Shown here in pieces: positions 22,471 through 22,689 of a stretch of DNA of 64,000 bases. The stretch is from the NCBI RefSeq assembly GCF_947568905.1, contig NC_079171.1:4898001-4962000 (forward strand), read 5' to 3'. The stretch comes from Ostrea edulis (Eukaryota). Made by a program: the position numbers and the translations under genes. The notes under the pieces are model-generated. The model was not told where the DNA came from. It did not search any database and saw nothing but the letters and a program-made list of their open reading frames with translations. The stretch's first letter is position 1; every line of letters starts with the position of its first letter.

Positions 22471-22689
22471 TTATTTCAAACGTTGATTACACTTGACCTC
22501 AGACATTTTCATGTCATTTAATTTCAAAAGTAAAGTCGGTGACAATAATATCTCAGCTTGTTCAATTCTCCTTTTAAAATGGGCTCTATCTATAGCATAC
22601 TGCATCCATATCCCCTTCCGATCTTCACAGGGTATTGATATAATTTGAACAAATTTGTCAAATTGAACTTTCTTCTGTATTTTCACCAT
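22471..22689 (-). CDS. PPP1R15/GADD34-ICP34.5-DP71L-like PP1 regulatory protein, 72 aa
   Basis: RVxF-type KKVQF followed by RKGIWMQYAIDRAHFKRRIEQAEILLSP; conserved in C. Confidence 0.88.
   Translation of the reverse strand: MVKIQKKVQFDKFVQIISIPCEDRKGIWMQYAIDRAHFKRRIEQAEILLSPTLLLKLNDMKMSEVKCNQRLK

Follow-up and report, generated by a model that had tools for sequence, protein, structure and literature searches.

Adaptor-like genes and Maverick elements in the window

The window analysed here, a 64,000-nucleotide stretch of Ostrea edulis contig NC_079171.1 (positions 4,898,001 to 4,962,000 of the forward strand), contains two short open reading frames (ORFs) resembling PPP1R15 and DP71L, each within a Maverick element. 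The ORF of Maverick B lies on the minus strand (22471..22689, 72 aa; PF10488 E 5.9e-4) and that of Maverick C on the plus strand (28771..29016, 81 aa from the first ATG; PF10488 E 6.1e-5). The original prediction had described them as DP71L-sized, Maverick-borne adaptors of the GADD34/ICP34.5/DP71L type with a KKVQF motif and a common helix pattern, and their size, positions, and motifs agree with that description. Both follow the pattern KKVQF...RKGIWMQYAIDRAHFKRRI..(A/V)E..LSP.L, in which 13 residues, rather than the predicted 12, separate KKVQF from the Arg. The RVxF-type PP1 docking motif KVQF occupies aa 7-10 of the B ORF (22660..22671, minus strand; read from the sequence and aligned to DP71L V16/F18 via the C paralogue) and aa 14-17 of the C ORF (28810..28821, plus strand; by alignment to DP71L). 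At the column of GADD34 Arg591 both carry a CAT codon, for His37 in B (22579..22581, minus strand) and His44 in C (28900..28902, plus strand). A combined RVxF and helix pattern, composed with the motif already in view, occurs at two places in the six frames of the window, which are the B and C ORFs, and nowhere in 200 triplet-shuffled windows. A third adaptor copy lies in Maverick A, about 5.7 kb upstream of the window start.

Maverick C (27501..48244, plus strand; 20.7 kb) has AGTAGT...ACTACT ends, inverted repeats of about 200 bp that are 94% alike, and the target duplication CTCGAT; its pPolB is spread over three ORFs and has one more break than that of A. The right part of Maverick A fills 1..14573 (plus strand). 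This element starts at G000:C8:4891187, 6.8 kb before the window, has the target duplication ATCGTC, a clean one of 6 bp, and sits inside the pPolB gene of B, which it interrupts. Maverick B spans 14574..23383 of the window on the minus strand and has its right end, ACTACT, at 23378-23383; a search for its left end found none. Elsewhere on the contig is a copy of B that is 99.7% alike over 10.6 kb and has a different right flank. The (AGT)2/(ACT)2 ends of A and C, found together with inverted repeats and a 6-bp target duplication in both, are described for Mavericks in passages of PMC8097293. The contig as a whole carries a dense cluster of Mavericks of the window family (F1).

In B and C, the adaptor is preceded by a 75-aa ORF and followed by a CARD-PC4 protein and then by the integrase, capsid, protease, and ATPase genes, and A has the same order upstream of the window. 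The integrase with chromodomain of B (Pfam) is encoded at 19360..20514 (C paralogue 30457-31614). Its major capsid protein (17053..18369; C paralogue 32605-33918) is assigned from a weak double-jelly-roll-like match (DJR, E 0.007), its position, and a dN/dS of 0.06-0.08; the adenain-like protease (16595..17056; C paralogue 33915-34379) and the A32-like packaging ATPase (15825..16502; C paralogue 34463-35140) have weak Peptidase_C5 and Pox_A32 matches, respectively. All these B genes are on the minus strand. PolB and integrase score above the Pfam cut-offs, and the weak capsid, protease, and ATPase matches are backed by gene order and conservation. With pPolB, these genes flank both adaptor ORFs and bear out the predicted carriage by Mavericks; pPolB, integrase, ATPase, capsid, protease, inverted repeats, and 6-bp target duplication are the features that the elements have in common with Mavericks/Polintons (adintoviruses).

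The conserved 75-aa ORF directly upstream of the B adaptor (22711..22938, minus strand; C paralogue 28514-28741) has no Pfam match, is under purifying selection in F1 (dN/dS 0.12-0.28), and has a homologue in a second family, F2. The CARD and PC4 domains of the B protein at 20757..21770 (minus strand; C paralogue 29203-30195) were identified by Pfam. Such fusions of CARD to PC4-like domains are conserved in F1 and in another family, F4, and the protein may act against signalling by caspases or of the RIG-I type. In A (window 1327-6018) and in a young copy of the F1b subfamily (L068:2183-6881), pPolB consists of two ORFs of about 990 and 500 aa separated by a short gap and in differing frames, which suggests a conserved intron. 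The accessory region of A includes a tandem repeat (window 8669-9427) whose minus strand reads as a PPVVEETT-repeat protein. Further along the window are an intact-looking Bel/Pao LTR retrotransposon (52909-61050, with 830-bp LTRs 99.6% alike), a THAP-domain ORF (51681-52277), and a YqaJ/alkaline-exonuclease ORF (63200-63685; both by Pfam), the latter two presumably as in KolobokP-type transposons.

Relation to PPP1R15 and DP71L

The top PDB match of the adaptor is ASFV DP71L (E 7e-7 with a single sequence, ungapped over 52 residues), followed by PPP1R15B (E 6e-4) and PPP1R15A. With a 20-sequence profile, the values are 7e-13 for DP71L, 6e-10 for PPP1R15B, and 4e-6 for PPP1R15A, and the proposed homology to the GADD34/DP71L family is thereby confirmed. 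The pattern scans were based on the 20-sequence alignment as well, one of 49 sequences being too diverse for them. The HMM search suggested alongside the prediction was less clear-cut: PF10488 is the only family match of either ORF, and the scores of 20.0 (B) and 23.2 bits (C) fall below the cut-off of 26.1. Arg-type copies of the same genome pass this cut-off (e.g., 31.9 bits for L064), and 43 of 49 aligned relatives match PF10488 at E<=1e-3. The ESM Atlas returned PF10488-bearing clusters at 0.94-0.95, a weak result with a recognition value of 1808, below the 2300 mark.

The KKVQF of the window ORFs aligns with KHVRF of DP71L (V16/F18). Aligned to PPP1R15A 582-621, the C ORF keeps W582, D588, F592, R594, R595, I596, L603, and L607; the actin-facing Phe592 and Arg595, and Trp582, correspond to F45, R48, and W35 in C numbering. 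The leucines of the DP71L LSAVL segment (Leu57 and Leu61) are kept as LSPIL in C and LSPTL in B. Functional roles for these RVxF, helix, and LSAVL residues are given in parts of PMC5346070 and 10.1101/2021.06.18.449003. The linker is as long as that of DP71L and one residue shorter than that of PPP1R15B, and so lacks the bulge that, in a section of the DP71L preprint (10.1101/2025.02.28.640897), weakens PP1 binding. Counting against DP71L-like docking, the aligned columns have no counterpart to the linker Asp through which DP71L, according to the same section, forms a bridge with PP1 Arg74.

The short form of ASFV DP71L (PDB 9NB9 chain B) is thus matched in its stand-alone format of about 70 aa, RVxF motif, linker length, Trp, Asp-Arg, Phe, RRI, and LSAVL leucines. 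The window ORFs differ from it in the His at the Arg591 column and in lacking the linker Asp of the salt bridge, and their carrier is an integrating Maverick of about 20 kb, whereas that of DP71L is a large cytoplasmic DNA virus. PPP1R15A/GADD34, PPP1R15B/CReP, and the host PPP1R15 share the C-terminal PP1/actin/eIF2alpha core. In contrast to them, the window ORFs have no long N-terminal region and no intron, the intron being that of the host gene, which has about 570 upstream codons and is split inside its RVxF motif (L057). HSV-1 ICP34.5 has a further N-terminal part. By its description in an excerpt of PMC5346070, ICP34.5 ends in the same C-terminal motif.

The eIF2alpha-binding motif was reportedly defined by Rojas et al. 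in 2015. As quoted in an excerpt of PMC5346070, it reads Rx[Gnl]x1-2Wxxx[Arlv]x[Dn][Rg]xRFxx[Rlvk][Ivc], with Arg at the 591 column. The B and C ORFs fit every position but the invariant Arg before Phe, where both have His; the F1b and F2 families in this oyster genome fit the motif throughout. The original prediction had noted this His (DRAHF) as one deviation, and the change is indeed there, yet its weight was understated, as the position is that of GADD34 Arg591, a key eIF2alpha contact. The structural account in part of 10.1101/2021.06.18.449003 places Arg591 in a buried position between eIF2alpha Met44 and Tyr81, bridging to Asp83, and reports that R591A and W582A cause the strongest defects in dephosphorylation and that R591A also impairs substrate binding. 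Because Arg591 is a substrate contact and R591A is defective, the change may lower the efficiency of eIF2alpha recruitment and speaks against a straightforward place among the PPP1R15/DP71L adaptors. In the same partial account, PKR inserts a Phe into this eIF2alpha cleft, and by analogy a ring at the Arg591 site would not be absurd.

All 11 His-type copies have His at this column, with both His codons in use, across saturated synonymous divergence. In the wider protein family, 137 of the 150 representatives listed could be anchored, and they have Arg in 112 cases, His in 17, and other residues in 8; Cys is rare (2/137), though a single transition leads to it as well. The His count is inflated by kin, with 7 of the 17 more than 50% identical to C over >=35 residues (two short or distant matches excluded). 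His also occurs in the distant metagenome loci L082 and L091, and DRAHF in the second of two tandem PPP1R15 cores in the PPP1R15B of two Synchiropus fishes (P0148 and P0176), where it may be redundant beside the Arg repeat. An Arg-bearing close relative (L080) is nested inside the His clade at a 98/98 node, and the switch between the two is one transition (CAT/CGT). The other Maverick families of the genome and the host PPP1R15 keep Arg at this column. The host eIF2alpha retains Y32, E42, M44, S51, Y81, and D83 and shows no compensating change.

Selection, expression, and spread

Across residues 13-61 of the 11 His-type copies, dN/dS ranges from 0.03 to 0.45 with a median of 0.12 (51 of 55 pairs computable, four saturated). 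Gathering copies by protein similarity biases towards low dN, and A, B, and C were instead compared by position; by synteny, their adaptor dN/dS is 0.19-0.31 over the aligned length. This exceeds the values of capsid (0.06-0.08) and integrase (0.13-0.16) in the same comparison and is close to those of the other accessory genes (0.12-0.28). The adaptor of F2 has a median of 0.24 (20 of 21 loci anchored; 139 pairs with dS 0.15-3). The adaptor lineage is under purifying selection and is not decaying. Among the sequencing runs, the RNA-labelled run X1 has one contig at 28555-28773 that covers the upstream ORF and ends at the adaptor start, where uncovered parts prove nothing, and X9 and X10 have pieces without errors that span most of the C ORF, a weak signal given their unrecorded run kind and small contig totals.

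When the oyster genome was searched for the adaptor, the best 150 of 177 candidates were scored and all 150 matched; a Pfam-family search returned 116. They fall into several families. The window type, F1a, has DRAHF, and F1b comprises at least 12 copies with DRYRF that are 97.6-99.97% alike over about 2.8 kb. Most of the weaker matches belong to F2 (DRYRF/DRCRF), whose capsid is about 32% identical to that of F1 and which has a BIR-RING gene. F3 showed little Maverick context, with an integrase at one of the loci examined; F4 is broken, with a host-like motif, and one copy adjoins CARD-PC4 and integrase genes. At the F2 loci L064/L065 (G000:C3:10975001-10995000), the BIR-RING (IAP-like) gene is accompanied by a zinc-knuckle protein and a Rep-like ORF (weak Rep_OBD match, L035), and the adaptor ORF overlaps the upstream gene. 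F2 also has a candidate macrodomain, which matches the macrodomain protein BT1257 at E 0.0096.

An adaptor lies within 12 kb of at least 123 of the 146 capsid loci listed (the best 150 of 309 candidates, merged). At the seven of the other 23 loci that were checked with a sensitive profile (two of two controls positive), no adaptor was present within 10 kb on either side. Since some Mavericks lack it, the adaptor is a common accessory gene and not a core gene. A further Maverick-like family with capsid, protease, ATPase, and integrase (L116-L121 and L128-L129) had neither an adaptor nor a pPolB match within 10 kb of its capsid gene.

Metagenomes yielded 34 adaptor loci, 13 of which share their contig with a Maverick core gene (three close relatives and ten more distant ones). 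The Maverick genes of the distant loci are mostly 26-47% identical to those of the window elements, and the remaining loci are mostly short contigs without matches. A scan of viral contigs, in which a miss does not mean absence, found no Maverick-type locus: one of 79 pattern matches was confirmed, and this locus (L074) has large-virus-like neighbours and no Maverick gene. A profile search among 1.8 billion representatives retrieved 1027 clusters (50% identity) at E<=1e-3, hosts and large viruses included, and short stand-alone proteins, whose source names in the homologue searches were uninformative, make up most of the 150 representatives listed; a part of the DP71L preprint (10.1101/2025.02.28.640897) counts 391 proteins. 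In a 61-column tree, support of only 89/84 joins F4 and a long branch to the host gene, 16 of 37 inner branches are open, and the bootstrap is unsettled. This weakly suggests that the core was captured from host PPP1R15 more than once.

Predicted function and lifestyle of the carriers

Judged by its sequence, the adaptor is a real, selected, and widespread DP71L-like accessory gene of Mavericks with a predicted function. We favour, with fair though not high confidence, the reading that it is a stand-alone PPP1R15 core that likely docks PP1 and probably steers PP1 and G-actin to phospho-eIF2alpha, so that translation continues. PP1 would be bound through KVQF, the hydrophobic strand that follows, and the Arg-x-x-x-Trp segment; the helix would fold on G-actin, with Phe45 and Arg48 (C numbering) as putative actin contacts, and would recruit phospho-eIF2alpha to the active site with His in place of Arg591. 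Translation would then stay on while the element expresses its proteins. PP1 docking, a helix on G-actin, and delivery of phospho-eIF2alpha to the active site are the mode described for DP71L in portions of 10.1101/2025.02.28.640897.

The role of Arg591 as key substrate contact (10.1101/2021.06.18.449003, in part) and the fixation of His throughout the clade lend some weight to a different outcome, in which the His-type protein binds PP1 and is a poor eIF2alpha adaptor, being retargeted or a PP1/actin decoy, while the Arg-type copies are the true adaptors. Sequestration of PP1 has been suggested for DP71L mutants that retain PP1 binding yet do not act on eIF2alpha (PMC5346070, in an excerpt). 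The remaining eIF2alpha- and actin-facing helix residues are nonetheless all kept, and the same His is also present in separate lineages and alternates with Arg (CAT/CGT) while Cys stays rare (2/137); we regard retargeting or a decoy role as possible, if unlikely. That the ORFs are decaying relics without function is very improbable, even though the Arg591 column differs and there are broken copies and even entire broken families (with stops in L012, L017, L039, L056, and L059): dN/dS is far below 1, the frames are open in A, B, and C, and the motif columns are invariant across families whose capsids are about 32% identical. For the lineage this reading is largely refuted; a single integrated copy may be silent. 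Host-domesticated genes within Maverick remains, for which the possible transcript pieces might speak, are scarcely credible, as the gene sits inside the inverted repeats of the element and travels with it to different flanks, and the host has an intron-containing PPP1R15 of its own.

Under the preferred reading, that of a PP1- and G-actin-steering adaptor, a lytic viral phase is compatible, and the original prediction went further and took the gene as strong evidence for one. This is unsupported: relief from eIF2alpha shut-off is also useful without lysis, and the gene-bearing families have multiplied across many chromosomes in the form of nearly identical integrated copies. The known stand-alone homologues do come from lytic large DNA viruses, and the neighbours of L074 are large-virus-like; purifying selection acts on the capsid, protease, and ATPase genes, and the BIR-RING gene of F2 and the CARD proteins point to conflict with host defence. 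Against this stands, besides the integrated copies, the outcome of the viral-contig scan, and shut-off relief would equally serve non-lytic virion release and helper-dependent or intracellular replication, so that the adaptor as a mark of a lytic phase appears doubtful. The eIF2alpha kinases respond to ER load and other stresses too, and any heavily expressed element could therefore profit. PKR is found in molluscs. Oyster PERK is documented in a passage of PMC9680061. The selected capsid genes are a better argument for a virion stage than the adaptor, and virions need not mean lysis; the capsid argument has already been made for vertebrate Mavericks, whose particles were then unobserved (PMC8097293, in part). 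The adaptor shows that Mavericks gain from interference with a host stress pathway, not that they lyse cells.

Herpes-, pox-, and asfarviruses are known to encode mimics of PPP1R15. A term search of the Maverick/polinton texts PMC8502044 (with one supplement file), PMC8097293, PMC11296320, and 10.64898/2026.10.13.758929 turned up no reference to a PP1/eIF2alpha adaptor. In the literature search there was no co-mention of polinton and GADD34, and the co-mentions of polinton and eIF2 concern, by their listings, giant viruses or an anemone transcriptome. None among the matches listed joins Maverick/polinton with DP71L, ICP34.5, or PPP1R15, subscription papers and repeat libraries lying outside the search. 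The adaptor thus apparently has no earlier report in Mavericks, and the table of 391 homologues in 10.1101/2025.02.28.640897 may include Maverick-borne proteins filed under animals. The viral strategy is a familiar one, and Mavericks seem to be a new vehicle for it, here with a striking His variant. A broader proposal, for and against which we see the balance as even, is that aquatic-invertebrate Mavericks are a large unreported reservoir of DP71L-type antagonists that were repeatedly taken from host PPP1R15, through which these germline-integrated elements actively override eIF2alpha shut-off, with a His/Arg toggle that tunes or retargets them.

A putative host-defence antagonist under selection in more than 100 integrated copies argues that Maverick expression is strong enough to meet the integrated stress response. 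The 1027 clusters amount to a collection of natural variants from which to learn how PP1 is directed to eIF2alpha, among them a His at a position believed to be invariant, and the adaptor gives a small handle on the still unseen active phase of Mavericks.
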